A DNA stretch of 64,000 nt from Patescibacteria group bacterium (GTDB lineage: Bacteria; Patescibacteriota; Patescibacteriia; Patescibacteriales; UBA12465). Location of the stretch: NCBI GenBank assembly GCA_041658665.1, contig JBAZZR010000002.1, forward strand, positions 73,147-137,146. The letters are read 5' to 3'. The notes below the pieces were generated by a model, which was not told where the DNA came from, made no database searches, and worked only from the letters and a program-made list of their open reading frames with translations. Of the stretch, positions 4,559-61,605 are shown piece by piece (position 1 is the stretch's first letter; each line of letters starts with the position of its first letter). Position numbers and translations under genes: made by a program.

Positions 4559-4559
4559 T

Positions 4560-45020: not shown

Positions 45021-45049
45021 TTGACAAAAGCCAATAAAATTAATAATAT
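45021..45049 (+). promoter_or_regulatory. Sigma-70-type promoter
   Basis: TTGACA-N17-TAATAT, 52 nt upstream of the 45101 ATG. Confidence 0.55.
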
Positions 45050-45100
45050 ACAATATCGAACTTTAAAAATATTTAATCATCAAAAAAAGGAAGATAAAAA

Positions 45101-45808
45101 ATGAAAACAAATCCAAACCCCTTCGCCGACCTAATAAACCAATTCTACCGGGATATTAAAGAAATAACGGCAGAAACCGCTCTCATCTGTTCCCGAACTT
45201 ATTATAGTATGACCGAGAGCCAAATCATCGCCCTTTACGAAAATTTCGGGCTTTGTCTCCATCAACAATTATACTCGTTAATCGGAGATACCCGCGCAGA
45301 AACTGCCGGACCCAATACTTGTTTTAGTAAAATAAATTTAATACTTGAATCTATAACCGAAGACGACGCTTTTCAAAAATCGGCTTTCTATTGGTCCCAG
45401 ATTCAATTTTGGATAAAATATCCTAATCAAGAAGAGTTAGACGCCGAAATAGATAAGCTAAAATTAATTATCCAAAAAACTTTAGCCCTAAGGCTAACTA
45501 AAAACCAGTCTAACGGAAAATTAATTCTGCTTAGCCTCGCCTACTTACTATGGCTCGAGCAATCTATTCCGACTATACGAGCATTTGGCGTTAAGCACGA
45601 CACTCATATTTTCTGGAGCACGGAGAAATACTTTATCACTTTCTTACCATCTCTCCAGCAACATAATAGATTACTAATGGAAGCGGCTAAAAATAGCAAT
45701 CTACTAGGAATCGAAAAAGAAGAATGGTGGAAAACAACCACCGAAGAAATAATTCAGAATTTACGAGAATATAATCGCCTAATATTTCAACCGGTGATAA
45801 AAAAATAA
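45101..45808 (+). CDS. Hypothetical protein
   Basis: 235-aa ORF with its own promoter and a shared terminator. No family recognised. Confidence 0.5.
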   Translation: MKTNPNPFADLINQFYRDIKEITAETALICSRTYYSMTESQIIALYENFGLCLHQQLYSLIGDTRAETAGPNTCFSKINLILESITEDDAFQKSAFYWSQIQFWIKYPNQEELDAEIDKLKLIIQKTLALRLTKNQSNGKLILLSLAYLLWLEQSIPTIRAFGVKHDTHIFWSTEKYFITFLPSLQQHNRLLMEAAKNSNLLGIEKEEWWKTTTEEIIQNLREYNRLIFQPVIKK

Positions 45809-45822
45809 TTTATCTTCTATCT

Positions 45823-45855
45823 AAAACAAGCTATCTAACGCCGATAGCTTGTTTT
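45823..45855. terminator. Bidirectional terminator between convergent genes
   Basis: AAAACAAGCTATC-N7-GATAGCTTGTTTT. Confidence 0.7.
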
Positions 45856-45882
45856 CATGCGCGCTTAATAGTAGCAATCAGT

Positions 45883-47550: not shown

Positions 47551-47604
47551 ATAATTTTTACTTAATTAAAATTTTTATATATCACCCGACTATAATTTCG
47601 AGAG

Positions 47605-48186
47605 TTATTTCATGGTGAACAATTTCATCAGTAACCCGTGTCTGGCTTTAATTTTTTTCTTGGCCCAGGGAAAAAATATCTTTTTATTATAATCCCTATT
47701 TAATTTCTCGAGCGCCCATAATTTAAAGTCGGCCGCGTTTCTTCGGCCAGTGGTGGCTATTTGCAGATAAAAATCATTTATATAATGAGCCATCGCATCG
47801 GCAGTCGCTAAAATTTTTCCCTCTAAAGTTACGGGTTTATTTTTACCACAACTATGCGTTAAAATAATATTTTGGACTTTTTTTATCATCTCGGAACTAT
47901 AACCATATTCCAACATTATTTTTTTAGCCTCAAGCGCCCCCATTTTTTGATGATCCCCGCTCTTTCCCCTAACTCTCTGGGTATCATGTAACCAAACGCC
48001 TAATAGCGTTACCTCCCTATCCGCTTTTGGCAGTTTCTTTAATAAAAATTTAGCATATTTTTCAACCGCTAATAGATGAGTATCATAAAACCAGGGTTCG
48101 ATATGTCCTAAATCACGACATTCATTCTTAATTTTTTCTTTAATTTGTTGAACCGTTTTAAGAGACATAATTTTATATCTATACAA
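47605..48186 (-). CDS. HD-domain phosphohydrolase
   Basis: H...VE..A (HLLAVEKYA) and GVWLHDTQR, the HD motif. The likely ATG start is at 48168 (MSLKT). Confidence 0.75.
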   Translation of the reverse strand: MYRYKIMSLKTVQQIKEKIKNECRDLGHIEPWFYDTHLLAVEKYAKFLLKKLPKADREVTLLGVWLHDTQRVRGKSGDHQKMGALEAKKIMLEYGYSSEMIKKVQNIILTHSCGKNKPVTLEGKILATADAMAHYINDFYLQIATTGRRNAADFKLWALEKLNRDYNKKIFFPWAKKKIKARHGLLMKLFTMK

Positions 48187-48275
48187 AAAAGATAAAAATC
48201 ACCTTATTTACCTTAAAATCATCTCATTTTATAAGTGAAAAGTCAAAAACAAGAAACAAAAGAATGGCTTTAAAC

Positions 48276-49010
48276 TTAGACAAATTCTAATAACAAAGCT
48301 TTATGATCAGAAACTTCTTCCGGCAAAGCCAAGAAATCTTTAACTGCAATATCTGATGAGCATAAGACATAATCAGCAAACTTTTCTGGCTTTTCGTAAT
48401 AAGAGGTGCGCGTAGACTCTAATTTATATTCCTTAACTAAATTTTTTAAATTAAGTTCTTGCTCAATCAAATTTAGACTCTGTGTATCTGGTCTCAAATT
48501 AAAATCCCCGGCTAAAATTATCTCACCGCTCAGACTCTTAATAAAATTAATAATCTTTTCCGATTGTCCCAGTCTTTCCGGGGAGTCAAGCTTGCCATGG
48601 CCGCTCCAAAGACCGTGAAAATTTAAAATATTAAAAGTTTTACCATTTAAAACAGCGACTATGAACTGTAAATTGCGACCCACGGTCGTCGCATCACGTC
48701 CAATCATCGAATCGCGCTCTCGATAGACAAAAAAATCCCCATTCTCTAAAACCTGAATAGAACGTTTAATAAAAATAGCTAAGCCCCACTCGCCCGCTTC
48801 CACTGGAGCAAAATAACCTAGATGATCAGGTAAAGATTCACTGATCTCCATAAATAATTTGGCTCTTTCCCGCTCATTAAAGACGGTTCGCTCAGTGCCA
48901 TTATGGAAGATCTCCTGTAACAGAAAAATATCGACCTCTTGGTGTTTTCCAAAAAAATCTAAAATTTCTTCCACTCGTCCGCCCCAAGCATTTAAAGATA
49001 TTAATTTCAT
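48276..49010 (-). CDS. Endonuclease/exonuclease/phosphatase (EEP) family protein
   Basis: SLNAWGG...DIFLLQE...GDFN...SDHKAL. Confidence 0.75.
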   Translation of the reverse strand: MKLISLNAWGGRVEEILDFFGKHQEVDIFLLQEIFHNGTERTVFNERERAKLFMEISESLPDHLGYFAPVEAGEWGLAIFIKRSIQVLENGDFFVYRERDSMIGRDATTVGRNLQFIVAVLNGKTFNILNFHGLWSGHGKLDSPERLGQSEKIINFIKSLSGEIILAGDFNLRPDTQSLNLIEQELNLKNLVKEYKLESTRTSYYEKPEKFADYVLCSSDIAVKDFLALPEEVSDHKALLLEFV

Positions 49011-49130
49011 ATATAACCATACTAAAAGCTATTTTTTAGCTTTCCTTAATATTTTATCAAACCATTATCGACGCCGACCTCGGCCAAGTCATTGTCTCAC
49101 AAAGTCTAATGACTATCTAAATTAGATAGC

Positions 49131-49859
49131 CTATTTTTCTATTACTGCCGTAATCGGTAAATGGTCAGAGCCTGTTGAATCGTCAACCTGAAAAGAATTG
49201 ATCTTAATATCTCGACTCGTAAATATATAATCCAATTTATATTTAACACTTTCGACTAAACAACCCGTACAACCTTCTTTATATACTGACCAGGTCGGCG
49301 TAGCCGAACTCAGTTCGGCGTCTTGTAATGTTCGGCTCATCTTTTTAATCACTGAACTATCGGGCAATGAATTAAAATCTCCCATCACGATTACTTTCTT
49401 AGCCGGGAGAAAGCCTAATAAATTTTCGACCTCCTGATCCTGTAAAACTGATGGCTGCTGATGCGTATGCTTAAGATGAATACTAAAAATAGATAAAATT
49501 TCCGATCCTATCTTAATATCAGCTGCTATCACTAGCCGCCGGAAATCATCGGCGTAGCTTAATTCATGTATTTGGCTACTAATAATTTTATATTTACTTA
49601 AAATCGCCGGCCCAAATTTTTTACTGCCCTTATCATCGCTTTTATATCCTGGAAGGAATCGGAGCGGGATTTTCATCTCAATCGCGTGAACGCATTCATA
49701 GCCTAATTCTTTGGCAATAACATCAGCGATATTACCCCTTTCGTCTTCAGTCGCTTCCTGAAGAGCAATAATATCTGCTTCAGCGCTTTTTAAAAACACA
49801 ATTACTTCGTCCAAATGCGTTCCGCACCAAATATTCCAAGATATAACTTTAAGTTTCAT
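49131..49859 (-). CDS. Endonuclease/exonuclease/phosphatase (EEP) family protein, diverged tandem paralog
   Basis: SWNIW...DIIALQE...GDFNS...SDHLPI. Confidence 0.75.
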   Translation of the reverse strand: MKLKVISWNIWCGTHLDEVIVFLKSAEADIIALQEATEDERGNIADVIAKELGYECVHAIEMKIPLRFLPGYKSDDKGSKKFGPAILSKYKIISSQIHELSYADDFRRLVIAADIKIGSEILSIFSIHLKHTHQQPSVLQDQEVENLLGFLPAKKVIVMGDFNSLPDSSVIKKMSRTLQDAELSSATPTWSVYKEGCTGCLVESVKYKLDYIFTSRDIKINSFQVDDSTGSDHLPITAVIEK

Positions 49860-50014
49860 ATATTATAAGAAGGTTGTTATAAAAAATTAGGACTCTAAAA
49901 CCTTAGACACGTTCAGTCAAAAAGGTTGCCAGTAATCTTATTATAATTTTACTACCGCAAAATACAAAAAACAAGCGGATATTAGATTTAATATCCGCTT
50001 GGCAATTCGCTTTT

Positions 50015-50533
50015 TTATATAGGAACTTTCAGACCAAAAATTACCTGGGCTTGGATAATTTTTGTTTTACCCGCCTCGGGATGTTTAGCCTCTTGGAACT
50101 CAACTACTTCGAGAAAAAAATGACCATCGGCATGACACAAATTCAAAAAATCGGCCGCTAGTTTTTCATCGTTATAAATAGCCCCGGAAGAAAAATGAAG
50201 ATAGGTATCTTTAACTTCACCAATAAACTCTGGGAAAAACTCTAATATTTCTTCTTTAGTCCAAAAAGTATCAAAGACCACTCCCGATTCTCCCGGCACA
50301 GTAATAGAGGTTACTACGACACCTGATCCCTGATATATTTTAGCAAAGACCCGACGCATGATTCTCTCTACTTCTGGAGGATATTGAAGAACGAACGAAG
50401 CATACGCCTGTCCGTCATTTACTCCAGGCGCAACAGAAACCGTAAGTGAACTATACTCGGGCCAAGCAATAAACAAAGCCACGGGCTGCCCATTAACAGG
50501 ATCGGCGGATTTTCTAACAAATTCTAAACTCAT
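50015..50533 (-). CDS. Hypothetical protein
   Basis: 172-aa ORF followed by the hairpin AAGCGGATATTAGATTTAATATCCGCTT. No family recognised. Confidence 0.45.
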   Translation of the reverse strand: MSLEFVRKSADPVNGQPVALFIAWPEYSSLTVSVAPGVNDGQAYASFVLQYPPEVERIMRRVFAKIYQGSGVVVTSITVPGESGVVFDTFWTKEEILEFFPEFIGEVKDTYLHFSSGAIYNDEKLAADFLNLCHADGHFFLEVVEFQEAKHPEAGKTKIIQAQVIFGLKVPI

Positions 50534-50741
50534 GATAACACCTTCAACATTAATGATTAAATTTGATTAATTACTAAGCTAACAAATATATTTTTAGCTC
50601 AACAATTAACCAAATTATATGTTAAGGTTCGACAACAAAAAAATATAGCACAAGACTATATTTTTATCAATACGCGACTAAATAATAATGAAAGACAATT
50701 TCTCTTCCGGGCCAGAAAAATGAAATGTAGTAAAAATTCTT

Positions 50742-51254
50742 TTAATATATGGATCCAAATCTCCCCTCGGATAAATTTTTAACTACTTCATCGGGCTCAA
50801 AAATTTTACCATTCATACAAACATATATCCCTTCGGATAATTCTTGAGATTTAGCCACCGCATAACCGATATTAAAACCAGCATCAGTCGGAGTAAACCC
50901 CTCCAAAGGAATCATGGAACAGATAAAAATTATAACCTTACCATGATTTTTAAGATTAGCCTGTAAACATCTAGCCGTATCGGGCAAGGTATAAGTCCCG
51001 TGCGTTATGATTATCCTTTTAGCTTTACTGCTAGTAACGGCATCTAATATATTCTTCCGATCCGATTCAATTAATTCCCGACTATCTTTCATGCATACCT
51101 CGGTAAACTCACATTCTTCATATAATTTCAGGATCTTAATAAATTTAGGCACCACTGAATGTTCATTTGTTACAGCGGTGTCCTTTGTCCCGTCATAATA
51201 TGAATCGACAGTCCCGCCAGTCATGATGAAGTGTAGTTTGTTATTTTCAGACAT
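50742..51254 (-). CDS. Asparaginase N-terminal-domain-like protein
   Basis: MTGGTVDS (compare TGGTI), ITHGTYTLPDTA (compare HGTDT), 170 aa. Confidence 0.6.
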   Translation of the reverse strand: MSENNKLHFIMTGGTVDSYYDGTKDTAVTNEHSVVPKFIKILKLYEECEFTEVCMKDSRELIESDRKNILDAVTSSKAKRIIITHGTYTLPDTARCLQANLKNHGKVIIFICSMIPLEGFTPTDAGFNIGYAVAKSQELSEGIYVCMNGKIFEPDEVVKNLSEGRFGSIY

Positions 51255-51330
51255 ATTACGATTATTAATATTATATATAAATTATAACAAAAAATGTTAA
51301 TTTTTTAAACCTAATCGGATGATCAAAATC

Positions 51331-51702
51331 TTACTGTCTGGCCGCCACTACTTCAATTTCTAAACTAGCGCCTAAAGGTAACTGTGACACTCCTAGAGCT
51401 GTCCGAGCGGGAAATGGATGATTGAAATATTTCTTATATTCCTCATTTAGAGCTGGTAACTCGGCTAAATCTGTTAAATAGAGACGTACTTGAATAATAT
51501 CATTAATTGTTAAATCAGCTGCAATGAGTATATTTTTAATGTTATCCATAGCGGCGTTAAAACGTTCTCCAATTGTCTCACCGATAAGCTTCCATTCTTT
51601 GTCGGCATGAATTTGGCCGGAAACAAAGACTAGCCCATTAACTTCCCAGGCTGATTATAATGGGGCATTTAATAACTCGGATGAACCATATACTTTTTTC
51701 AT
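51331..51702 (-). pseudogene. ridA: RidA/YjgF/L-PSP family gene interrupted by an in-frame TAA at codon 16
   Basis: Reading from ATG at 51702-51700 (ATGA overlap with the upstream GNAT stop) gives MKKVYGSSELLNAPL*SAWEVNGLVFVSGQI...ARTALGVSQLPLGASLEIEVVA. The stop at 51655-51657 sits where RidA proteins usually have Tyr (PYS motif). The track shows only the C-terminal 72 aa. Confidence 0.7.
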
Positions 51703-52124
51703 ATATTTTTTATAAAATGATAGCCGTAATTAGTATACCCCAAACTTTCATAAAAAAGATGAGCCGCTTTATGATCATAATGGGATTCTATGAATAGGCG
51801 GTAGCAATCGAGTTCTTTAGCCTTGTCCTCTATCTGTTGCATCAACATTTTTCCTACTCCTTTCTGACGATATTCAGGCCGGACAAAGATTTCATCCAAC
51901 TCGGCAATCGGTTTAGGATAACGAATGACGCTCCTTATGGAAAATGAAGCAAAACCAATCAGTTTACCCAGGTCTTCAGTAACAAAAACAAAATTACTCT
52001 GAGAATCTAAAACTCTGGAAAAGGAGTCGTTATCATGCTTAGAATATTTATCTTCGCCGACAAATAAATTATAGAGACTCATTAGTTCTCGATAATCCGA
52101 CTGACTGACTTTTCTTATATTCAT
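51699..52124 (-). CDS. GNAT N-acetyltransferase
   Basis: IFVRPEYRQKGVGKMLM, an acetyl-CoA motif. Confidence 0.8.
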   Translation of the reverse strand: MNIRKVSQSDYRELMSLYNLFVGEDKYSKHDNDSFSRVLDSQSNFVFVTEDLGKLIGFASFSIRSVIRYPKPIAELDEIFVRPEYRQKGVGKMLMQQIEDKAKELDCYRLFIESHYDHKAAHLFYESLGYTNYGYHFIKNI

Positions 52125-52258
52125 ATTATCTAATTATACTTATATGATACCAAAAAACCGCTCAAATGGCGATTTTTCTTCAATACTGGGCGTCGTGAAC
52201 GCTGTTAGAACTAAAGTTATAAAAAAAATCAATAAATATAATCACAACTAAAAACTAA

Positions 52259-53956
52259 TTATAAATTTAAATTATTTAAAGCCTTGCCGTGGTATGTCCG
52301 ACTAAGATCATCTTCTGGTAATTCATCTTGTATCAAGCCCCTAATCATTTCAGTGTTCCAATCAGGCGACCAATTTTGCGATACCCACATTAGTCCTTCT
52401 TTAAGACCAATTAAATTAAGTTTACGCAATAATTGTGGGTCGGCAAATATTTCTGTAAACCTTTCTTTTAAAAGTGGTAATAAATGATGAAAATTCTTAC
52501 CTTTAAAATTCGAAAAATCTTTTGTCCCCTCAACAAATTGTTGAGGATTATCAATAAAGGCAATTAAAGAAATTAGCGCCCGAATTTTTGGGGCTTTAAG
52601 CGCCGAATCAAAGTCTAATACCGCTGTTAATTTATTATTCTCATGCAGAATATTACCCATATGTAAATCGGTATGGATAAAAACAGATTCACTCTTATCA
52701 AAAACTGAAATGTGTTTTAAAAAATAGATTTCAATTTTATTAATATCTTCTAATGAACACAATTTTTCTGACTTAATCTTAACCACATACTCATTAAACT
52801 CTTTGACTAAAAATTTACTGAAACTAGGATAAGACTCTCGACCGTCAAGATTAACTCGACCAAAATCTTTAAATTTAATTTCGAAAAGCTGATTGACAAC
52901 ATCGAGTATTTGTTTAAAAATAAGCTCCCTCTTCGGTTCACTCATCTCGCAAATATCTTCTAATAACATTTTTCCCTTTGACCGCCTCATGACCAAGACT
53001 TCAAAAGGCGTTTTGTTAAAATAATCATAGGCGATTACCCGAACGACAGGCGCTTGATTACCAAGTCTATCAGAAACTACTTTATTGGCTACATAATCCG
53101 GCTTTTCGTTATTCTGATTCATCTTAATCACTAACTGCGGGGTTAGATAAGTGGCGTGAACATTTCCGGCGTTAGCCTCAGTAATTTCTTCAATCATCGG
53201 TAAATTAGGAATGTCTAGAATATCTAAAACATTTAAAACTTGCTCACGAGTAAATTTTAAAACACGTTTTTGATATTGCTGCTTAATTTCTTCTTGATAT
53301 TTATCAGAATCGACATATTTTTCAGTATCAGCTAAATTATTTCTAGCATCGGATACTTTGGAAAAAAAAATTTCTGGATTAATAAAAAAATAATGGCCAA
53401 ATAATTCGTCAATATATTTTTCCGCGCCGTGATAACTATCCTGCCAACTATTATAGCTTAGGAAATCAAATTCTTTAGAATTAAGAATTAAATCAACGAT
53501 TCGTTCTTTTTCCCAGTGCTGAATTTTATACTTTTGAATCCAGTCCTCAATGAGCAGATGAACAATCTCATGAACAATCGTTTTAGAACCTCTCTGACTA
53601 TTTATATTAAAAACAATGGTATTCGGAAGAAAATAGGAACCATTAGTTCCATAATTAGTTAGGTAAATCAAAAAGGTGTCCGGAATATCTTTATTAAAAA
53701 AATTTTCTAACTTAGAGGATAATTGAAAATAGTTAGTCGAAAAATCAGCGGTTATTTGATTAGCCACCTCTACGTATCTTCCTCTATTAAACTCTTTACT
53801 AATTTGATGCTTAATTTTTTCTTCGGAGAATTCCTTATTTATTCCTTCGGGTAGTCTTGGCTTATAACCATTAAAATCATACCAGTCCATCTTGGCTATG
53901 GTATTTTTGACTCTCTCTGACTCCAGGGCAATTCCAAATTTTATATTTAGTGTCAT
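52259..53956 (-). CDS. Two-domain protein: HExxH metallopeptidase-like N-terminus plus aminoglycoside/choline-kinase-like (APH) C-terminus
   Basis: TIVHEIVHLL at ~residue 127, and FIHTDLHMGNILHE...VLDFDSA (Brenner/APH catalytic loop plus DFD) at ~residues 425-450. Confidence 0.6.
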   Translation of the reverse strand: MTLNIKFGIALESERVKNTIAKMDWYDFNGYKPRLPEGINKEFSEEKIKHQISKEFNRGRYVEVANQITADFSTNYFQLSSKLENFFNKDIPDTFLIYLTNYGTNGSYFLPNTIVFNINSQRGSKTIVHEIVHLLIEDWIQKYKIQHWEKERIVDLILNSKEFDFLSYNSWQDSYHGAEKYIDELFGHYFFINPEIFFSKVSDARNNLADTEKYVDSDKYQEEIKQQYQKRVLKFTREQVLNVLDILDIPNLPMIEEITEANAGNVHATYLTPQLVIKMNQNNEKPDYVANKVVSDRLGNQAPVVRVIAYDYFNKTPFEVLVMRRSKGKMLLEDICEMSEPKRELIFKQILDVVNQLFEIKFKDFGRVNLDGRESYPSFSKFLVKEFNEYVVKIKSEKLCSLEDINKIEIYFLKHISVFDKSESVFIHTDLHMGNILHENNKLTAVLDFDSALKAPKIRALISLIAFIDNPQQFVEGTKDFSNFKGKNFHHLLPLLKERFTEIFADPQLLRKLNLIGLKEGLMWVSQNWSPDWNTEMIRGLIQDELPEDDLSRTYHGKALNNLNL

Positions 53957-54137
53957 ATTTATGGTTTATTATTAAACTCTACCTCTAAGCCTCTAAAAAA
54001 TCAAATTCACGCTAAATAATATGCGTTAGAATTAGTGGAAAAACATAAAATACGATCTAAACAATCCGGGTCTCTTCTAGTAGAGTTAGAACTAATTAAT
54101 TAAAATTATAAATTTAAATATACGTTTTAGCCAAAAA

Positions 54138-54686
54138 GTGATATATTACCATTATAATACTAAAATTATGATAAACGTATCTTTATCAACTCCAACAAAT
54201 GACATAAACAATGAGGGACCCTCTTTCAAACCAAGTAGTATCGACTTACTACAACTTCTCTCGCTTTGCTTACCAGCTTTAATAAGTTGGATTTTTTTTC
54301 AATTCTTGGCAAGAGATCTCGAATTTATGATAGCCGCTTCAAGTATTGGAATGATTATATGTGCTATTCTCAGCTGGTTTTTATATAAAAAATTTAAATC
54401 AATAATTATTATTTGTTTTTTGTATATTTTAGCTGGTTGTATTATATATTTTATATCGAGCCAAGTGGCACCATATTACACTAGCCAATACCTTTTTATA
54501 ATTTACCCTCTGACAACACTGTTTATTCCAACTACTTATATTATAAAGGAGATATTAAGAGATACGAACAGAATCAGCCTCTTTGTTATGAGTCTTTTTA
54601 TATCAATTATTTTTTCATTTGTTTCTTATTATACAATATCATTTCTAGCAGGATTCATTATGCTTTTATTTTATGGTTGGCACTAG
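54138..54686 (+). CDS. Small polytopic membrane protein
   Basis: About 5 TM helices. GTG start in the track; the in-frame ATG at 54168 is more likely. It is the only plus-strand gene between 46 and 61.6 kb. Confidence 0.45.
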   Translation: MIYYHYNTKIMINVSLSTPTNDINNEGPSFKPSSIDLLQLLSLCLPALISWIFFQFLARDLEFMIAASSIGMIICAILSWFLYKKFKSIIIICFLYILAGCIIYFISSQVAPYYTSQYLFIIYPLTTLFIPTTYIIKEILRDTNRISLFVMSLFISIIFSFVSYYTISFLAGFIMLLFYGWH

Positions 54687-54744: not shown

Positions 54745-54865
54745 ACCCGCCCCTCCGCTTCGCTCCTGGGTATAAACTTCGACAACAATCTGGCAATATA
54801 ACAAAAAAGAAGGAATATTATTTCTTCTTTTTTGTGATGCTCGGAGCTTGGGATATAGCTGGAAC
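54745..54865 (-). repeat. Diverged third copy of the composite module (GC-rich segment, hairpin, cassette box)
   Basis: CCCCTCCGCTTCGCTCCTGGGTATAAACTTCGA (compare CCCCTACGCTCCGCTCCGGGGCATAAACTTCGA in the other two copies), a hairpin at 54801-54835 with an unrelated stem sequence, and box GCTCGGAGCTTGGGATATAGCTGGAAC at 54839-54865. Confidence 0.7.
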
Positions 54866-55456
54866 TTACTTATTAACTCTTTCTTTGATTTCTTTTATTA
54901 CGTCCGTCTTACCACTATCGTATTTGCTATAATTATCATGATACTTACTATATAAATCTTTCTTAACAGATATATACAAATTTCGATCTTCTTTATGAGT
55001 CCGCAAATAATCACGAAACTTTAGATCTTCTTCACTTTTGGGCTGTCCTTTTTGAAATACATGCACGCTAGTTAGTCTTCTGCCGTCACCCGTGTCCTCA
55101 GTAAAATATTCATCCCCCGTACCCACATATTCCGTTCCTCTGGGAGTAAACCCAAATTTAATTATTTCTTCGTATAGACTTTTAATTTTAAAAAAATCTC
55201 TAACTAAAATTAAAATATCTATCTGCGGTTTCGCGACCATTCCAGGAATAGAGGTGCTACCAATATGATGAATTTCTAAAAGTTCGTCACCAAAAACAGA
55301 CTTTAATACTTGAGCTTTCTTATTGAATTCTTCGACCCAATTCGGATCATATTCTTTTAATTCAAACTTACGATGAGGTTTCATAATGTTTAATACTAAA
55401 TGATCTGTCTCGGGCTCTCTTAAATTGACCGGGAGGATAGGATATAGTTGAAACAA
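54866..55456 (-). CDS. GrpB-family (UPF0157) protein
   Basis: IHHIGSTSIPGMVAKPQIDILI. Confidence 0.75.
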   Translation of the reverse strand: MFQLYPILPVNLREPETDHLVLNIMKPHRKFELKEYDPNWVEEFNKKAQVLKSVFGDELLEIHHIGSTSIPGMVAKPQIDILILVRDFFKIKSLYEEIIKFGFTPRGTEYVGTGDEYFTEDTGDGRRLTSVHVFQKGQPKSEEDLKFRDYLRTHKEDRNLYISVKKDLYSKYHDNYSKYDSGKTDVIKEIKERVNK

Positions 55457-55490
55457 CTATAAACAATAATTTTAATTAATTATACTTATA

Positions 55491-55787
55491 TTAATTAAAT
55501 TTCTTTTTCTCCCAGGACCTCTCTATATAAACTTTCTGCCAACAAAAGCGTCCTATAAAAAAACCACCAGTTGCCCCAAGTGCCCACAGCGCGACCTGAA
55601 GCACCGGCGGCAAGGCACAACCGCCATAAAATGGCACCACTCGACCTTGATTTAAAACCCATTGTAAATAATTTATTTCAATCAAAGCGTGCCCGATGAG
55701 ACTTAATAAAAGACCTAAAATTATAAAAGCAAATAAATAAACTACCTTTTTTAATCTAGTTGGTTTGCCTGGGACATTAAAAATCAT
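55491..55787 (-). CDS. Small membrane protein
   Basis: 98 aa with two TM helices. Confidence 0.45.
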   Translation of the reverse strand: MIFNVPGKPTRLKKVVYLFAFIILGLLLSLIGHALIEINYLQWVLNQGRVVPFYGGCALPPVLQVALWALGATGGFFIGRFCWQKVYIERSWEKKKFN

Positions 55788-55788
55788 A

Positions 55789-55914
55789 TTATTTCTTTTT
55801 ATTCAACTTTTTGGGCAATTTCTTGCCCTTAGGAGTTTCGGCCGCCCATCTTTTTGCCATTTTCGGTTTGTTGGCGAACATCCATTTACGCTGGGCAATG
55901 CTTTTAAACGGCAT
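55789..55914 (-). CDS. Small basic protein (41 aa), below the ORF-track cutoff
   Basis: My translation: MPFKSIAQRKWMFANKPKMAKRWAAETPKGKKLPKKLNKKK. Its stop is 1 nt before the next ATG. Confidence 0.4.
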   Translation of the reverse strand: MPFKSIAQRKWMFANKPKMAKRWAAETPKGKKLPKKLNKKK

Positions 55915-55924
55915 AACTTATTAA

Positions 55925-56167
55925 TTAATGGCTAATTAACTTTATTTTCTGATCTCTCGGCAATTTTTTTATTTTGTTTTCCGCCTTTAGGGCTAAGGAC
56001 CGATTGCGACATTTCTTTATATAAACTAGCTTGACTGGCCGGCGCGAGCGAGTGTACTTCGCGCCGAGTCGAGAGGAATTATGCTCCTTCACTCTTCGCT
56101 CCAAATCAACCGTGATACCGGTGTATAATGTCTTATCGGCACATTTCAAGATATATAGATAATACAT
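55925..56167 (-). CDS. GIY-YIG nuclease-family small protein (UPF0213-like)
   Basis: YYLYILKCADKTLYTGITVDLERRVKEHN. Confidence 0.8.
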   Translation of the reverse strand: MYYLYILKCADKTLYTGITVDLERRVKEHNSSRLGAKYTRSRRPVKLVYIKKCRNRSLALKAENKIKKLPRDQKIKLISH

Positions 56168-56168
56168 A

Positions 56169-56194
56169 GCTGGAGTTTAGGATAAGGTTGGAAC
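56169..56194 (-). repeat. Cassette box (tRNA-3'-end-like)
   Basis: Plus-strand GCTGGAGTTTAGGATAAGGTTGGAAC. It abuts the GNAT stop (56195) on one side and the GIY-YIG ATG (56167) on the other. Confidence 0.7.
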
Positions 56195-56635
56195 TTATTT
56201 TTTTACCAACATCAGTCTTGGCTCACCATCACCGAAATAGTTATCTTTCCAAGATTCAATAAAAAAGCCTAGCGGCAGATATAAACAAAGGGCTGGATTA
56301 TTATTAGGATGCACTAATAATTCAATGCGAGAATATTTAGATACTCTTTTTAAAACAATATTAACTGCCCGCTTTGCAACACCTTCACGTCTAAATTTTT
56401 TCCTGACTACCAAACCGTCTAAATAAACGACATTTTTCTTTACTATTTTATAAGCGATTAAGCCAAGAACAATATTTTGTCTTTTTATTAAAAAAACAAA
56501 TTCCTTATTGATAAAATTTTTCAATTCTACGTCATTAATCAAGGCGGAATATGTTTTTGATTGAGCTTCCTTCTCGATATCGGCTATCTCCTTTAAATCC
56601 CTCCACGTCGCTTTTTTCAATAAAACTTTATTCAT
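56195..56635 (-). CDS. GNAT N-acetyltransferase
   Basis: LVVRKKFRREGVAKRAV. Confidence 0.75.
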   Translation of the reverse strand: MNKVLLKKATWRDLKEIADIEKEAQSKTYSALINDVELKNFINKEFVFLIKRQNIVLGLIAYKIVKKNVVYLDGLVVRKKFRREGVAKRAVNIVLKRVSKYSRIELLVHPNNNPALCLYLPLGFFIESWKDNYFGDGEPRLMLVKK

Positions 56636-56655
56636 ATTTTATTGTTTATACAATA

Positions 56656-56684
56656 AAAATAGCATTTTCATGCTATTTTGTAAA
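56656..56684 (-). promoter_or_regulatory. Cassette promoter/terminator hairpin module
   Basis: On the minus strand: TTTACA, then the hairpin AAAATAGCAT-gaaa-ATGCTATTTT with a T-run. Confidence 0.5.
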
Positions 56685-56688
56685 CATT

Positions 56689-56715
56689 GCTGGGAGAATG
56701 GAGTGTAGTTGGAAC
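56689..56715 (-). repeat. Cassette box (tRNA-3'-end-like)
   Basis: Plus-strand GCTGGGAGAATGGAGTGTAGTTGGAAC, 44 nt after the NUDIX stop. Confidence 0.7.
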
Positions 56716-56759
56716 GCTAATTAATCTTTAGATATTTATTTAATACCACTAAATATAAA

Positions 56760-57215
56760 TTATATTACTTGCAGATGCTGTAAAATTTCGACAACCGAGC
56801 CACCACATTGCTTTTTGTCTAACGTTACTAATTCAACCCATCGCGGTTGTTTGGTGCCATCATCAACAATGTTGTCTAAATCAATAGATAACGGCTTACA
56901 CAAATAAAAAAAGGCAAAATTATGATAAGCCTTGTCCCAGTGATCATAATAAATAAACTGCTCTTTAAAATTAATAAACTTTCCTACCTCGATTTTTAGG
57001 CCCGTTTCCTCTTCTGACTCCCTCTTTAATGTGGCCTCAATTGTTTCGCCTAACTTGATGCCGCCACCAGGGAAATAATATTTATTGTTAGACTCGGCGG
57101 TAACTAAGAGGACTTTACCATCATTTATTATAACCGCATACGCGCCTGGTCTAAAAGATAATTCTTCCACGGGGACCATTTTCTTGTAACCATTAATAGA
57201 AGTACATTCAATCAT
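56760..57215 (-). CDS. NUDIX hydrolase
   Basis: Nudix box GGGIKLGETIEATLKRESEEETGL. Confidence 0.85.
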   Translation of the reverse strand: MIECTSINGYKKMVPVEELSFRPGAYAVIINDGKVLLVTAESNNKYYFPGGGIKLGETIEATLKRESEEETGLKIEVGKFINFKEQFIYYDHWDKAYHNFAFFYLCKPLSIDLDNIVDDGTKQPRWVELVTLDKKQCGGSVVEILQHLQVI

Positions 57216-57231
57216 ATATTTCGATAAACTT

Positions 57232-57270
57232 TATATATCAAAAATAGCACCAAAAGTGCTATTTAGTCAA
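57232..57270 (-). promoter_or_regulatory. Cassette promoter/terminator hairpin module
   Basis: TATATATCAAAAATAGCACCAAAAGTGCTATTTAGTCAA, 38/39 identical to 59116-59154. On the minus strand: TTGACT, then the hairpin AAATAGCAC-ttttg-GTGCTATTT with a T-run. Confidence 0.55.
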
Positions 57271-57272
57271 AA

Positions 57273-57299
57273 GCTGGGAGTTTGGAATATAGTTGGAAC
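57273..57299 (-). repeat. Cassette box (tRNA-3'-end-like)
   Basis: Plus-strand GCTGGGAGTTTGGAATATAGTTGGAAC, 12 nt after the PfkB-kinase stop. Confidence 0.7.
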
Positions 57300-57311
57300 T
57301 AAAATATCTAA

Positions 57312-58196
57312 TTAAAGAGACAATTGAGATTCCAGTCTAGCCAAAACATTTTTAACACTACTTCTAAAAGCCCCTTTTTCCTCTAAAGACATCGTGGCAA
57401 CCATGGCCGCAAATCTTCCCCGATCAACCGGATCATCAAACAATTCTAAGGCTCTGATAAAAGCTGCCAAATAAGTATCCCCCGCGCCAGTCGGATCCAC
57501 TATTTTATCCGGTAAAAAGGCCGGAATTTTATAGTAGTTGTTCTCTAAAAAAAGATGCGAACCTTTTGAGCCCTCAGTAATAATCATATCGATTAGACCG
57601 TGAGCTTGAAGATATCTTGCCGCATCATTTACATTATTTTCCCCTGAGACAAATTCAGCCTCGCCCTTGTCTAAAAATAAATATTTTAAGAATGGCAGAA
57701 CTTCAATCAAATTTTCCGGGTTCTTTCGGACAAATTTGCCACTTTCTCCGTAGGTAAACATTCCGAAATTACCTAAAACTAAATTCTTATGTTTTAATTT
57801 AATAAATAATTCACGGGAAATATCATCATGAAATAAAGGACCAAAAATTATATAATCGAATTCTTCTAATTCTTTCAGTAACCTATCATTTGGTTCGATT
57901 GTATTGGGATAGCTCTTTATTATGTCTTTTCTAATATCAGGATTATCGGATGAATATTCTAAATCAGACTCTAGAGTTTTTTCAGCTGGTAGACACTCAA
58001 TGTCTATATCGGAAAAATTTTCTTTTACCCAGGCCGTATCTTCTGAGCCGCAAGTAACATAGGGTTTAACTTTTTCAACACCCAAAGATTTTAGAGCAAC
58101 TGCCACATAATAAGGGATGCCGCCAATTTGCATCGACAAATTATTATCTATTTTGATACAATCTTTGGCTACTGGCCCCAAGACGGCAATCTTCAT
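57312..58196 (-). CDS. PfkB-family carbohydrate/nucleoside kinase
   Basis: DPTGAGDTYLAAF, the PfkB signature 2 with its catalytic Asp, in a 294-aa protein. Confidence 0.8.
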   Translation of the reverse strand: MKIAVLGPVAKDCIKIDNNLSMQIGGIPYYVAVALKSLGVEKVKPYVTCGSEDTAWVKENFSDIDIECLPAEKTLESDLEYSSDNPDIRKDIIKSYPNTIEPNDRLLKELEEFDYIIFGPLFHDDISRELFIKLKHKNLVLGNFGMFTYGESGKFVRKNPENLIEVLPFLKYLFLDKGEAEFVSGENNVNDAARYLQAHGLIDMIITEGSKGSHLFLENNYYKIPAFLPDKIVDPTGAGDTYLAAFIRALELFDDPVDRGRFAAMVATMSLEEKGAFRSSVKNVLARLESQLSL

Positions 58197-58197
58197 A

Positions 58198-59106
58198 TTA
58201 ACTATTTATTTCTTTAGTTTGCCCTTTGGCAGTGACTGATATGTTGCTAGTCTCTTTATCGTCACTATCTGCAATTTTAAAGGCTATGTTTTCACAGTTT
58301 TTCATTGATTCACCAAAATTTTCATTTAAAAAATAAAGAAAGGAATTTTCATGACTAAAAGCTAAAACTTTAATGTTTTTTTCCGGCTGCCGCTGATTAA
58401 TTTTTTCTTGGCCGAATCGTACTAACCGCAACAAATTTTTAAACTTTGACTCATATACTTCCTTGGCGGATTTTACATTAGGAAATATTTTTTGAATTTC
58501 TTCGGAATGAGCAGCATAATTTTCGCCCCAAGTTTTTTGATTATCTTCTTCAATTATCTTTCGGGCAGCTGTCCATTTTTCTTTAGTTTCAGTTGAAACT
58601 TTGTCTAAATTTTCAATTTCTTTTAAATAATCTTTAGGTTGAAAAATTTGTTCCCTAAGCATATTTTCCAAATGATCTAATGACAGGCAGTCTATTTTTC
58701 TAATATACCCTTCACCAATCTCTTCGGCCTTATTTTTTGATTCAGGCGACTTCTCTTTTTTTGCTGAAATAATAACCTCAAAGCCATTTTCTCTGGCGAT
58801 ATCTAAATATATTTTAGCAGTTTCAGCGGCGCGAACTAAATCACTAGAAACAAAAAACAAAGCATCGGTCCCCGGGTTAAGTTTAGCAAAAAATTCCTGT
58901 GCCTTTTCTTGCGCAAGTTTTATCCCTTCAGATGTTAGATCAGAATTAAACCATTGCTTATCTGCACTCGGAGCAGCCTCGGGGTTGTCAGATTTTATTA
59001 TCCCTTCATTTAACTTATATTCAGATATACTATGTCTAATAACAAAAAATTCATCGTCTTTTTTTCGTTTCTGACTATTATCAATTTTCTCAAAATTATT
59101 ATTCAT
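58198..59106 (-). CDS. Histidine phosphatase superfamily (phosphoglycerate-mutase-like) protein
   Basis: FFVIRHSISEY (RHG-type motif), a later ...SDLVRAAETA, and AFSHENSF (second His). Confidence 0.65.
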   Translation of the reverse strand: MNNNFEKIDNSQKRKKDDEFFVIRHSISEYKLNEGIIKSDNPEAAPSADKQWFNSDLTSEGIKLAQEKAQEFFAKLNPGTDALFFVSSDLVRAAETAKIYLDIARENGFEVIISAKKEKSPESKNKAEEIGEGYIRKIDCLSLDHLENMLREQIFQPKDYLKEIENLDKVSTETKEKWTAARKIIEEDNQKTWGENYAAHSEEIQKIFPNVKSAKEVYESKFKNLLRLVRFGQEKINQRQPEKNIKVLAFSHENSFLYFLNENFGESMKNCENIAFKIADSDDKETSNISVTAKGQTKEINS

Positions 59107-59115
59107 ATAATTATT

Positions 59116-59154
59116 TATATATCAAAAATAGCACCAAAAGTACTATTTAGTCAA
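59116..59154 (-). promoter_or_regulatory. Cassette promoter/terminator hairpin module
   Basis: TATATATCAAAAATAGCACCAAAAGTACTATTTAGTCAA, a near-identical copy of 57232-57270. Confidence 0.55.
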
Positions 59155-59157
59155 TTC

Positions 59158-59294
59158 GCTGCGGGACTTGGATTTACCCCTACGCTCCGCTCCGGGGCAT
59201 AAACTTCGAATCCCAACGCCTACGGCGTTAAACAAAACACAGACATAAATGTCTGTGTTTTGTTTAAGCTGAGAGGATGGGATATAGTTGGAAC
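59158..59294 (-). repeat. Composite module, copy 1 (tRNA-3'-like 17-mer, 93-bp module, cassette box)
   Basis: 59158-59271 matches 61424-61537 at 112/114 positions, with 103 consecutive identical bases at 59169-59271. It ends in box GCTGAGAGGATGGGATATAGTTGGAAC (59268-59294). Confidence 0.9.
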
Positions 59295-59324
59295 GGCTTT
59301 ATTGAATAACTCTTTCAAATCTAT

Positions 59325-61370
59325 CTAATATTCCTCTCTTTTTAATTTTTCTAATTCCGAAAATCTTTGCTTCATTGTTTTTGTCTCCAAGGAGATAATC
59401 TCACCAGCCAACTGATTGACCAATTCTGGATCATACTCATATTTTATCCAACCATACTTTATTGCTTGCCTCTTAAATGGTACTAAAATTTCTTTTGTAA
59501 TATCTACTAAATCAAACATCCATTTCATCCTGGTAGGGGTTTCATGATATTGAGTTAATAACGTCACCTTAACATGCTCTATCAATTTAACAATTATCTC
59601 CACCGTTGAGTCAATGCCTCCCGATTTCCACAATAATTCATTAATTTTTAATTTTTCTTTTTTTGTCAGTTTTTTCCTTAAACATCTTATTAAAAATTCT
59701 TTTTCTTTCTTAACCAAATAGGGGGAATATAAAGCGATGATATATTCTGTATGTATTTTTCCATCTTCTATATCAGAATGCGACTGACCCTTCATCCCTT
59801 TATTTAATTTAGAGTAATCTTCCATCATAATATAATCCCCCAAATCATTCCTAATCATCTGGATAATACCATAATACATCCCTATCGCTGGTGATATGAT
59901 ATCCACCTGTTTAGCGTTCATGATCTGATCTTCTTTGTTCCCTAATTGAGCCGCCAATCTACCAACCGCTTCGTAAAATCCGCCACAAATGCCATAGATT
60001 CTTTGGATATAAATAGTATATAATTCGTGAACATCCTTTTTATAAATCAACTCCTTTTTAGTTTCGGAATCAAAAGTTAGCAGTAAATCCAAAACCTGTC
60101 CTTCATACATGGTGTGATTATAGTCGTTTATTGTGGTGGCTATCCGCCGAGCAACGTCCTTATTCTCTGCGGCGATAATAAAGCTATATTTCAAAGCTAA
60201 TAAATGACCGATAATCCCTGTAAATATAGCATCTCGCCGGCTAAATTCATTCCAAACTGTATTTAAATTTTGTCTAACCCGAGAATTATCGAAGACATCA
60301 TCTAGAGCATAGGTGTTCATCCAATTATATAGTTCCACTAATGCTCCTACTTCACAAGGAAAGGATTCGGATTTTACGAAACGCTGCTCCCGAGTAAGGT
60401 GGTGCGTCACTAAATCATAAAGTTCAAAAAATAACTCCGCTCGAGTCTTTTTCACCCCCTGTTTCCTATTCTCTACTTTTTTAAAGGGCGGCAAGATAGA
60501 GTGTTGTAAACAATCTAAAATATGATCCCTAGAACTTCCCCACTCGATCACAACAGCGCTAATGGCGGAATCTATCTTGTCCTCTGCAATATTATTTTTA
60601 AAATATTCTGAAATTTTCCTCTCAATAGCACATACTAGCAGGGAATCTTCATCACAATCAAACTCTAAACTTTGCAAATTTTTTAGTTCTTTGGCTATAA
60701 CAATATTTGGTTTTACTGTGTTAAAAATGGTTATATCCAAATTTTTCCTACTAAACACACCCCTGGCCAATGCATCGACGTGATAATTTATAATTCCCGT
60801 GCGAGAATAAATAGAACGATAATAATTTTTTAGATATTCAATGATCTTGTTCTCCATCTGCCCCTTATCTTGGGCATACAATAAAGTCGCATGAACAAAT
60901 TTAGGGTGATCTTTTACCACATCGGCCACTTCTTTGTCTGTTGTTAATATGGCATTAATACTGAAGCTGACCATCCACTGAGCGGCATAATAGTCTACAT
61001 GCTCTTTATCTTCAATCAACATAATGACCGGCTTGCCCTTAGCGATAGCATAACCACACTCCCAAGTGCTATCCGTCCCCACAGGAGAACCATCCAGCGA
61101 ATCATATTTCTTCATATACACGAGGAGTGCATCAGCGTGATTAATCTCATTTAAATCATAACAAGCTATTCCTATCGGGATAAACCTATGATCATCCGGG
61201 TTATCAAGAACCCCAGGTTCAAACAATTTAATTTTTTTATTAAAAAAATTTGAATATTGAGAATTAAAAAACTTCTTCCATAGAGTTATGCCACTAGCGA
61301 GATAAAGCCGGTACTCAAATTTCTTATCTATCTTCCCCATATGAATATATTTATGACTTAAAAATACCAT
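59325..61370 (-). CDS. Fusion protein: nucleoside 2-deoxyribosyltransferase-like N-domain plus polyprenyl-synthase-like C-domain
   Basis: N-terminus YLASG...ADALLVYM...DGSPVGTDSTWECGYAIAKGKPVIML follows the NDT-family pattern. C-terminus YALDDVFDNSRVRQNLNTVWNEF....AIFTGIIG follows the first Asp-rich motif context (compare DDxxDxSxxRRGxPT), and YGIIQMIRNDLGDY follows the second (compare FQxxDDxxD). Confidence 0.6.
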   Translation of the reverse strand: MVFLSHKYIHMGKIDKKFEYRLYLASGITLWKKFFNSQYSNFFNKKIKLFEPGVLDNPDDHRFIPIGIACYDLNEINHADALLVYMKKYDSLDGSPVGTDSTWECGYAIAKGKPVIMLIEDKEHVDYYAAQWMVSFSINAILTTDKEVADVVKDHPKFVHATLLYAQDKGQMENKIIEYLKNYYRSIYSRTGIINYHVDALARGVFSRKNLDITIFNTVKPNIVIAKELKNLQSLEFDCDEDSLLVCAIERKISEYFKNNIAEDKIDSAISAVVIEWGSSRDHILDCLQHSILPPFKKVENRKQGVKKTRAELFFELYDLVTHHLTREQRFVKSESFPCEVGALVELYNWMNTYALDDVFDNSRVRQNLNTVWNEFSRRDAIFTGIIGHLLALKYSFIIAAENKDVARRIATTINDYNHTMYEGQVLDLLLTFDSETKKELIYKKDVHELYTIYIQRIYGICGGFYEAVGRLAAQLGNKEDQIMNAKQVDIISPAIGMYYGIIQMIRNDLGDYIMMEDYSKLNKGMKGQSHSDIEDGKIHTEYIIALYSPYLVKKEKEFLIRCLRKKLTKKEKLKINELLWKSGGIDSTVEIIVKLIEHVKVTLLTQYHETPTRMKWMFDLVDITKEILVPFKRQAIKYGWIKYEYDPELVNQLAGEIISLETKTMKQRFSELEKLKREEY

Positions 61371-61423
61371 AAAATCAGTAAGAAATCAAAAAAATAAGAC
61401 AAAATGCCTTATTTATATAGGGT

Positions 61424-61550
61424 GCTGCGAGACCTGGATTTACCCCTACGCTCCGCTCCGGGGCATAAACTTCGAATCCCAACGCCTACGGCGTTAAACA
61501 AAACACAGACATAAATGTCTGTGTTTTGTTTAAGCTGCGAGACCTGGATT
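61424..61550 (-). repeat. Composite module, copy 2, directly abutting tRNA-Gln
   Basis: GCTGCGAGACCTGGATT at 61424-61440 is an exact 17-nt copy of the tRNA 3' end at 61534-61550. The 93 bp between them is identical to the copy at 59176-59268. Confidence 0.9.
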
Positions 61551-61605
61551 CGAACCAGGATAAACGGCTTCAAAGGCCGCTGTCCTACCGTTAGACGATC
61601 TCGCA
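61535..61605 (-). tRNA. tRNA-Gln (anticodon UUG)
   Basis: Hand-folded cloverleaf: acceptor TGCGAGA/TCTCGCA, D-arm GTCT-AACGGTA-GGAC, anticodon arm GCGGC-CTTTGAA-GCCGT, T-arm CCTGG-TTCGAAT-CCAGG, discriminator G. CCA is not encoded. Confidence 0.9.

Follow-up and report, generated by a model that had tools for sequence, protein, structure and literature searches.

Recombinase-free gene units bounded by putative large serine recombinase half-sites at the 3′ end of a Patescibacteria tRNA-Gln gene

We analysed a 64,000-nucleotide stretch of a Patescibacteria group bacterium (assembly GCA_041658665.1, contig JBAZZR010000002.1, positions 73,147–137,146; hereafter the window, numbered from its first letter), in which six small gene units are stacked 3′ of a tRNA-Gln gene, each ending in a conserved box of 26–27 nt. 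Comparison with related genomes suggests that the boxes are P′ half-sites of a large serine recombinase (LSR) and that the array arose by serial insertion of LSR elements at the tRNA-Gln 3′ end, a reading that we consider probable. Each box would be an element-side attachment half-site, composed of a P′ arm and a 2-bp crossover. The LSR would be carried by small Patescibacteria integrative elements that combine cargo with a 317-aa open reading frame (ORF), a 47-aa ORF, a rolling-circle replication initiator (Rep) and the LSR gene, and whose integration would take place at the extreme 3′ end of tRNA genes.

Searching the window for the box core GGRWTRWRGYTGRAAC with at most one mismatch returned six matches, all on the plus strand and all between 54.8 and 59.3 kb, where shuffled sequences lead to an expectation of 0.08. 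An earlier reading of the sequence alone (the original prediction) had listed five boxes delimiting five gene blocks. The coordinates and sequences of these five boxes are all correct, but the count of blocks is not, since a sixth box at 55428–55454 was overlooked. This box divides the supposed first block into GrpB alone and a group of a membrane ORF, a 41-aa ORF and GIY-YIG, so that the array comprises six units. Numbered outwards from the tRNA, and all on the plus strand, the boxes are box 1 (59268–59294, GCTGAGAGGATGGGATATAGTTGGAAC), box 2 (57273–57299, GCTGGGAGTTTGGAATATAGTTGGAAC), box 3 (56689–56715, GCTGGGAGAATGGAGTGTAGTTGGAAC), box 4 (56169–56194, GCTGGAGTTTAGGATAAGGTTGGAAC), box 5 (55428–55454, ACCGGGAGGATAGGATATAGTTGAAAC) and box 6 (54839–54865, GCTCGGAGCTTGGGATATAGCTGGAAC). 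The right 16 nt of box 1 match the consensus perfectly, and this box would represent a P′ half-site plus the crossover dinucleotide TG. Box 4, shortened to 26 nt by a 1-nt deletion, touches the GIY-YIG start codon, box 5 is a GGATAGG variant like the box of a related locus (L013, below), and box 6 has the dinucleotide TC as opposed to TG in the window's own tRNA. Much as originally described, a box follows the stop codon by 0–44 nt in every case. The boxes are spaced 521–1995 nt apart with genes filling the gaps, and a spacer of only 1–161 nt separates a gene start from the next box.

The box itself is unfolded. Its minimum free energy is 0 kcal/mol in five of the six copies, no better than that of shuffles, in line with the predicted lack of self-complementarity, and neither inspection of the sequence nor folding revealed inverted symmetry within it. 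An attC-like site is ruled out on both counts. A Xer/dif site, as used by integrative mobile elements exploiting Xer and by pdif modules, spans 28 bp, in which a 6-bp spacer separates two inverted arms of 11 bp each; such arms are missing here, and the recombinase found in relatives is of the serine and not the tyrosine type. Clustered regularly interspaced short palindromic repeat (CRISPR) arrays consist of short direct repeats with unique spacers of 25–70 nt. Some CRISPR repeats share the terminal GTTGGAAC of the box, but the gene-filled spacing of 521–1995 nt excludes such an array. A terminator can be dismissed as well, the true terminator hairpins flanking the box and not lying inside it. 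A structured tRNA-like RNA or known RNA family was rejected too, as the box shows no T-arm pairing and Rfam matches the tRNA alone.

The anchor of the array is a tRNA-Gln(ttg) gene on the minus strand, recovered at 61534–61605 by both ARAGORN and Rfam (64.8 bits). The original prediction that the boxes mimic its 3′ end is borne out: positions 1–16 of the boxes are identical to it at 9–11 of 16 bases, with a per-site P of 0.004–0.0001 against all 16-mers of the window. The chromosomal B′ half-site would be the tRNA 3′ end itself, reading GCTGCGAGACCTGGATTCGAACC on the plus strand (61534–61556). Beside tRNA-Ser and tRNA-Trp in other genomes, the best match of the boxes is likewise their own tRNA.

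Box and tRNA end differ in a specific manner. The motif TTSGAAC occupies positions 16–22 of the tRNA end and positions 21–27 of the box in the Gln (TC and TG), Ser and Trp types alike. By serine integrases, a given zinc-ribbon-domain motif is read 5 bp nearer the centre in attB than in attP half-sites (Rutherford et al., PMC3783163), and the outward shift by 5 bp in the box fits this rule. The pair originally described as two TYCCA half-sites more plausibly corresponds to a single LSR half-site, one member being its recombinase-domain segment and the other its displaced zinc-ribbon-domain motif. Setting AGTTGGAAC in the 16–24 register of PMC3783163 places the crossover at box positions 3–4, and the crossover dinucleotide of the window's tRNA would thus be the TG at 61536–61537 (A72/C71). 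Box positions 3–4 read TG where tRNA-Gln ends in GCTGCGGG and TC where it ends in GCTCGGGG. The proximal box agrees with its tRNA at these positions in 14 of 14 tRNA-Gln loci (4 TG, 10 TC), and one metagenome-assembled genome (MAG) with two loci differs as expected between them (L013, TG; L026, TC). This covariation can be explained by the need of serine integrases for identical central dinucleotides. We also considered the left half of the box as a displaced host tRNA end and rejected it, since it differs consistently from the local tRNA (…GAGNNT… versus …GGGAC…) and would imply a 28-nt box in TG hosts.

In related genomes, a box and a tRNA gene enclose complete recombinase-encoding elements. 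The box-to-tRNA-Gln interval of locus L014 is a 7.7-kb element with cargo on the tRNA strand and, on the opposite strand, a 317-aa ORF, a 310-aa Rep with an HUH-like motif and a 512-aa protein with serine-recombinase signatures, the reading frame of which runs into the tRNA 3′ end. Intact elements of this kind, each with the LSR 3′ end entering the tRNA, are also present in L005, L032, L033, L034 and L028; a Resolvase/Recombinase/zinc-ribbon gene adjoins all six of these loci but is not found within the window. Intact tRNA-proximal elements measure 4.5–9 kb across the related genomes, and the LSR gene enters tRNA-Gln at the same position in L014, L032, L033 and L034. Looking up homologues on long contigs yielded L032, L033 and L034/35, in which a module of 317-aa ORF, 47-aa ORF, Rep, small ORF and LSR abuts tRNA-Gln with a box 4.4–7.9 kb away. 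The LSR has more than 1000 homologues, mostly in Patescibacteria; it contains Resolvase, Recombinase and Zn_ribbon_recom domains above the Pfam cut-offs, matches a PHROG integrase and is less than 30% identical to any LSR of annotated phage and plasmid collections. For the Rep, matches are to rolling-circle initiators, that to RepSA being sub-threshold. In L028, an LSR with 68% identity abuts tRNA-Ser(gct), and the distal box GCGGAGAGGGTGGGACGCACTGGGAAC mimics the tRNA-Ser end. The view of the box as a protein-binding or recombination site, and not a terminator, is thus strengthened by its unfolded state and its position at the distal junction of recombinase-encoding elements.

L032 links these elements to the window most directly. 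It is syntenic with the window (FtsX, FtsE and Peptidase_S11, about 70% nucleotide identity, same tRNA-Gln(ttg)) and carries an intact LSR element at the tRNA, beyond which three more boxes bound small units without mobility genes. Homology boundaries fall at the expected places: that between the window and L013 stops at AGCT, the start of box 4 (56169), and that between L014 and L005 breaks off among the first bases of the tRNA or box. Two further observations concern the elements themselves. In L027 (Ga0265297_10000314, positions 1–1900), a tRNA gene split by a group I intron (Rfam, 101 bits) and not called by ARAGORN has at its 3′ end an abutting LSR, which shares 83% identity with the LSR that targets tRNA-Gln. 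Beyond the LSR element's box in L034, at a distance of 1.8 kb, there is a gene for an IS200/IS605-type Y1 transposase (4393–5259).

The distribution of the box in other genomes agrees with an attachment site. We scanned one genome per species with the pattern GAGNNTRGRATATAGYTGRAAC and obtained 26 loci, about 19 of which contain the complete 27-mer, including five bases outside the pattern (consensus GCTCGGAGTTTGGGATATAGTTGGAAC). The carriers are nearly all Patescibacteria MAGs, and neither the box pattern nor the attP pattern has a match in viral contigs. The loci are fixed, uncentred 8-kb blocks, and several boxes have no visible tRNA because the block stops. Wherever a tRNA-Gln (ctg or ttg) is visible, the boxes are located 3′ of it in the orientation seen in the window, separated from it by anything from zero to several unrelated small genes, and a terminator-like hairpin is found just outside the box in nearly all loci. 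Ser-type boxes form an array of five in L006, and Trp-type boxes follow tRNA-Trp in L037. A generic 3′-untranslated-region (3′-UTR) motif is incompatible with these data, as all six window matches are in the array and the two complete chromosomes matched (CP066698.1 and OW818634.1) have a single locus each. Four genomes share the FtsX–tRNA-Gln(ttg) arrangement and differ in the box-bounded units next to it: six in the window, one in L013, one in L018 and four or more in L032. The content from FtsX–tRNA-Gln to the last box is therefore entirely variable, and this unrelated unit content and number in syntenic genomes corroborates the serial site-specific insertion at a tRNA 3′ end that was originally proposed.

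A box on the transcribed strand, between stop codon and terminator hairpin and resembling the acceptor and T-stem 3′ strand, could also be thought of as an RNA-level signal, namely a tRNA-end mimic in the 3′-UTR that serves processing, CCA addition or stability of the cassette mRNAs or the tRNA-Gln precursor. We regard this as highly improbable. The box has neither secondary structure nor an Rfam match, roughly 55 other window genes do without it, and its flavour follows the neighbouring tRNA (Gln, Ser or Trp) and its TG/TC state. Moreover, it forms one end of the LSR elements and is joined to the LSR 3′ end in attP-like joints.

These joints occur in L031/L041 and L040/L042, where the LSR 3′ end (…AAAAGCGATTTTNNNTCAGT) is connected directly to a Ser-type box; judged by its sequence, the joint would be attP-like. 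In L031 (GCA_037132255.1, 10001–15709) and L041, the LSR gene is split, with a 91-aa N-terminal fragment following Rep, and the remaining LSR has a GNAT domain fused upstream while its 3′ end is joined to the box. This looks like a circular element that was opened within the LSR gene and became chromosomally fixed with attP intact.

Taken together, the elements and boxes suggest the following mechanism. The LSR would recombine attP, made of the LSR gene 3′ end and the box, with a target of the form old trailer | GC-TG-CGAGACCTGGA-TTCGAAC. Crossover at A72/C71 would keep the whole tRNA chromosomal, and the old trailer with its terminator would come to lie beside the box at the far end of the insert. 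Each of the six boxes, and the tRNA too, indeed has such a trailer with terminator beside it. Repeated insertion would push earlier inserts outward and leave the newest unit next to the tRNA. For the origin of recombinase-free units, our preferred route would be hitch-hiking. An autonomous element at the tRNA would excise using a more distal box and take the neighbouring units with it; element and units would integrate in a new genome; and the element would then depart using its own box, depositing the units and regenerating a clean trailer|tRNA target. Such a route fits the arrangement of L032, the clean junctions of the window and the flanks that travel with the units. Canonical LSR chemistry would suffice if an element at the tRNA can excise with any of the distal boxes, all of which are trailer|P′ junctions.

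Several points weigh against serial LSR insertion. No recombinase of this LSR family is present within the 64-kb window. Canonical LSR rules treat a tRNA that already adjoins an element as an attL-like site and not as a target, so that the mobility module would have to depart or be lost before further units could stack. Deletion scars are found in relatives: L008 has only 14 nt between box and tRNA, and L032 keeps 13 nt of an LSR end, so that decay also occurs. The distal window boxes depart from the TG rule. We found no Gln-type attP joint and no circular Gln-type element, the joints detected being of the Ser type in chromosomal or short contigs. Finally, the quasi-palindromic arrangement of characterised LSR sites, in which two half-sites resemble each other, is not seen here: the left arm is either a T-rich terminator tail or the LSR 3′ end (…GATTTTTCTTCAGT) and shows no mirror symmetry with the right one. 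Among the LSR-site features compared, dyad symmetry is the one that the boxes lack.

All long ORFs between 54866 and 61370 are on the minus strand, as predicted, and Pfam confirms GrpB, GIY-YIG, GNAT, NUDIX, PfkB, His_Phos_1 and the combination Nuc_deoxyrib_tr+polyprenyl_synt. Unit 1 (59295–61533, minus strand like the five others) encodes a 681-aa fusion of a nucleoside-deoxyribosyltransferase-like and a polyprenyl synthase domain (59325–61370), together with an upstream region, a 17-nt copy of the tRNA end (61424–61440) and a 93-nt module with a perfect 19-bp hairpin (61441–61533). A homologue of this gene with 66% identity occupies the tRNA-proximal box-bounded unit of the tRNA-Trp-anchored array in L037. 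The fusion protein is conserved in Patescibacteria and has 53 homologues of 40–68% identity; in L038 its homologue is followed by a NUDIX gene, and the contexts of the homologues P0132, P0133 and P0134 contain no boxes. Unit 2 (57300–59267) contains a PfkB kinase (57312–58196) and a His-phosphatase (58198–59106), then a promoter/hairpin repeat (59114–59154), a 17-nt tRNA-end copy (GCTGCGGGACTTGGATT, 59158–59174) and a 93-nt module (59175–59267). Unit 3 (56716–57272) consists of NUDIX (56760–57215) and a promoter/hairpin repeat (57230–57270), and unit 4 (56195–56688) of GNAT (56195–56635) and an upstream hairpin with a promoter-like site (56655–56685). Unit 5 (55455–56168) carries a 98-aa membrane ORF (55491–55787), a 41-aa basic ORF (55789–55914) and an 80-aa GIY-YIG protein (55925–56167). 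Unit 6 (54866–55427) holds GrpB, which from its ATG spans 54866–55384 and as a mechanical ORF starting at TTG extends to 55456. Directly left of box 6, a distal trailer (54750–54838, strand not assigned) combines a partial 93-nt module (54750–54782) with a hairpin (54798–54838).

In unit 5, region 55751–56171, comprising the 41-aa basic ORF and GIY-YIG, is 88% identical at the nucleotide level to L013 (JAPLVX010000067.1), compared with about 70% for the flanking core genes, which suggests recent transfer or unusually strong constraint. In L013 the equivalent segment adjoins tRNA-Gln, with 70 extra nt in between, and in both genomes the GGATAGG box variant stands on its far side. Compared with L013, the window therefore has four extra units inserted on the tRNA side.

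Elsewhere in the window, the 10 kb distal to the array (44208–54686) hold accessory-looking genes, mostly on the minus strand and free of boxes, among them tandem Exo_endo_phos paralogues (48276–49010 and 49131–49859), a 565-aa APH-domain protein and several Pfam-negative ORFs; the region may represent an earlier section of the island that has since eroded. Further away, a 439-aa ORF (5117–6436) is a thymidylate kinase-dUTPase fusion with thymidylate synthase (3205–4020) as its neighbour. Exact-protein look-ups for two ORFs of the window yielded nothing informative.

The non-coding flanks of the units are repeated. The predicted duplication of the 93-bp module is real and extends further: 59124–59275 and 61390–61541 are 89% identical over 152 nt. 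Copies of the 17-nt tRNA 3′ end at 61424–61440 (100%) and 59158–59174 (88%, two changes) each precede the same 93-nt module, which closes with the perfect 19-bp hairpin. The 17-mer of unit 2, GCTGCGGGACTTGGATT, equals the tRNA-Gln end of L014 and is incompatible with the window's own tRNA. Since it stems from another tRNA-Gln, the unit would have come in from another genome together with its flank. Just outside the boxes, the module is found at 59158–59267, at 61424–61533 and in part at 54750–54782 of the window, and also in L020 and L032 (in the latter at about 1250–1468, 2230–2465 and 3750–3973). In order, it comprises 17 nt identical to the 3′ end of the local tRNA-Gln, cut within the T-loop, then a GC-rich insert of 30 nt in the window and about 150–170 nt elsewhere, followed by CTGTTCGAATCCC and a terminator hairpin. 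In four long copies the closing stem and internal hairpins are supported, with compensatory changes in 16 of 41 pairs. Rfam has no match for the GC-rich module, which could represent either a miniature element that inserts into T-loops or a small antisense RNA directed at the tRNA end.

Such repeats could also act as portable homology, with box and trailer modules allowing homologous recombination after DNA uptake to keep or shuffle the array. Adjacent window units do share near-identical right-flank modules (41 nt at 98%, 152 nt at 89%), and L004 has the same terminator module twice. However, stretches of 27–110 nt are short for RecA-dependent exchange, and neither the tRNA-end mimicry with its 5-bp motif shift nor the LSR elements ending in a box would be explained. 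We consider this improbable as the origin of the array, and homologous recombination would be a secondary process at most.

A more serious alternative is that the boxes are fossil junctions: separate full-size LSR elements would have inserted and later lost their mobility genes by ordinary deletion, leaving inert scars without cassette mobility. Relatives preserve traces of such decay. In L008 (JBAXOH010000153.1, 525–637), the box is just 14 nt from the tRNA-Gln 3′ end and these 14 nt end like the LSR 3′ arm, TTGCTCAGT, so that the locus apparently retains nothing of an element but its two junctions. A 213-aa unit in L032 ends in 13 nt identical to the LSR 3′ end, L040/L042 retain just the last LSR bases beside the box, and the distal window boxes have accumulated 1–3 mismatches. 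The window itself tells against it. As originally predicted, it contains no recombinase, either by Pfam (cassette ORFs and 20 other window ORFs) or by tblastn with the element proteins, and no remnant of LSR, Rep, the 317-aa ORF or a P arm was found anywhere in it, be it beside a box or the tRNA, which argues against in-situ decay here. With gene-start-to-box spacers of only 1–161 nt, and with plain integration leaving P|B′ at the tRNA, which is no substrate, six precise clean-ups would have been needed. Nor would deletion account for one cargo family serving as proximal unit at arrays of different tRNAs, or for the foreign tRNA-end copy in the flank of one unit. We therefore regard inert scars as doubtful. 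The opposite proposal, that the boxes are live sites of serine-recombinase cassette exchange at which recombinase-free units of one to four genes are moved by an LSR in trans or by hitch-hiking, is one that we advance tentatively and with some leaning against it.

A further possibility would bring the array closer to an integron: any box (P′) would recombine directly with the tRNA end (B′), whatever its left arm, and one LSR acting in trans would move the cassettes. The left arms of boxes and tRNAs are conserved only in T-richness while the right arms are highly conserved, the units are small, with their own promoter-like site and terminator and a box 0–44 nt after the stop codon, and their flanks travel with them. 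Direct recombination of this kind would nevertheless conflict with the established rules on the direction in which serine integrases act (PMC3783163). We observed no circular cassette and found no LSR in the window, and arrays would be unstable unless the recombinase were rarely present; we judge this route unlikely. The likeness to integrons noted in the original prediction stands as regards the missing hallmarks, but a composite island of the staphylococcal cassette chromosome (SCC) type or a tycheposon island is the closer analogue. Shared with integrons are one-directional, small and unrelated cassettes, a conserved recombination site closing each cassette and entry at one fixed end. IntI, attI and Pc are not found, there being no Phage_integrase domain in the cassette ORFs or 20 other window ORFs. 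Whereas attC sites are imperfect inverted repeats of 55–140 nt that fold as single strands, the box is an unstructured, double-strand-type site of 26–27 nt. The cassettes here have promoter-like and terminator sequences of their own, the anchor is a tRNA gene and the associated recombinase is of the serine type, unlike the tyrosine recombinase IntI.

SCC composite islands of staphylococci (SCCmec, psi-SCC and the arginine catabolic mobile element, ACME) are moved by the large serine recombinases CcrAB and CcrC. The array is reminiscent of these islands in its LSR, in insertion at the 3′ end of a conserved gene without inactivation, and in tandem units between short att repeats, some of them without a recombinase gene. 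In SCC, alternative att repeats allow single or composite excision, a feature that we count as common to both. The differences are equally clear. The target here is a tRNA gene as opposed to rlmH/orfX, the units measure 0.5–2.2 kb compared with 3–60 kb, and the repeat is a P′-type mimic with the distal motif shifted by 5 bp and not a copy of the target. The elements also have a rolling-circle Rep, reside in Patescibacteria and encode an LSR with less than 30% identity to annotated phage and plasmid LSRs.

Tycheposons, together with the tRNA-anchored genomic islands of Prochlorococcus, resemble the elements described here in other respects. Both concern streamlined genomes, integrase-bearing cargo elements at tRNA genes and replication genes on the elements, and in both, on our reading, successive integrations shift older ones deeper into the island and leave recombinase-free remnants between tRNA-derived repeats. 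However, the recombinase is of the tyrosine type in 910 of 937 tycheposons, and the repeats of tycheposons are genuine partial copies of a tRNA (bioRxiv 10.1101/2020.12.28.424599). Here the recombinase is an LSR, the crossover would be at the last acceptor base pairs, and the repeat appears to be an element-derived mimic. Relatives of the window do have integrase elements at the tRNA, while the repeat separating the units is a mimic with 9–13 of 16 matches and the true 17-nt copies (59158 and 61424) belong to a different module. [quoted passage not shown] The Patescibacteria elements are likewise small, combine Rep and integrase at tRNA 3′ ends and have a Rep with a sub-threshold RepSA match. 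In contrast, AICEs mostly rely on a tyrosine integrase with Xis and carry an FtsK-like transfer gene, of which none was seen here, and box-punctuated cassette stacks are not known for AICEs.

Stacking of integrase elements at tRNAs (tycheposons), stacks of LSR units (SCC) and Rep-plus-integrase elements at tRNAs (AICEs) are thus already known. What appears to be new is the Patescibacteria LSR clade with less than 30% identity to annotated phage and plasmid LSRs, the choice of the last acceptor base pairs in several tRNAs as target, together with P′ mimics specific to each tRNA, and the very small, tidy units. We found no description of integrons in the Candidate Phyla Radiation (CPR), or of CPR serine-recombinase elements of this type, in the literature, of which not all journals were covered.

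Patescibacteria (CPR) have genomes below 1 Mb with few recognised mobile elements, and their gain of accessory genes is poorly understood. The locus and its relatives point to a concrete route for such gain, in which LSRs insert small Rep-bearing elements at tRNA 3′ ends. The cargo stacked in this manner includes nucleotide and sugar-phosphate enzymes, acetyltransferases, deaminases and membrane proteins, and the boxes could be used as a bioinformatic marker of flexible regions in CPR metagenome bins. The tRNA-specific box flavours, with their mimicry, 5-bp shift and matching dinucleotide, would form a natural series for the retargeting of serine integrases, which is of relevance for genome engineering. 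If the boxes are indeed sites of live cassette exchange, Patescibacteria would own a functional counterpart of the integron that relies on a different enzyme family and is anchored at tRNA-Gln, tRNA-Ser and tRNA-Trp.

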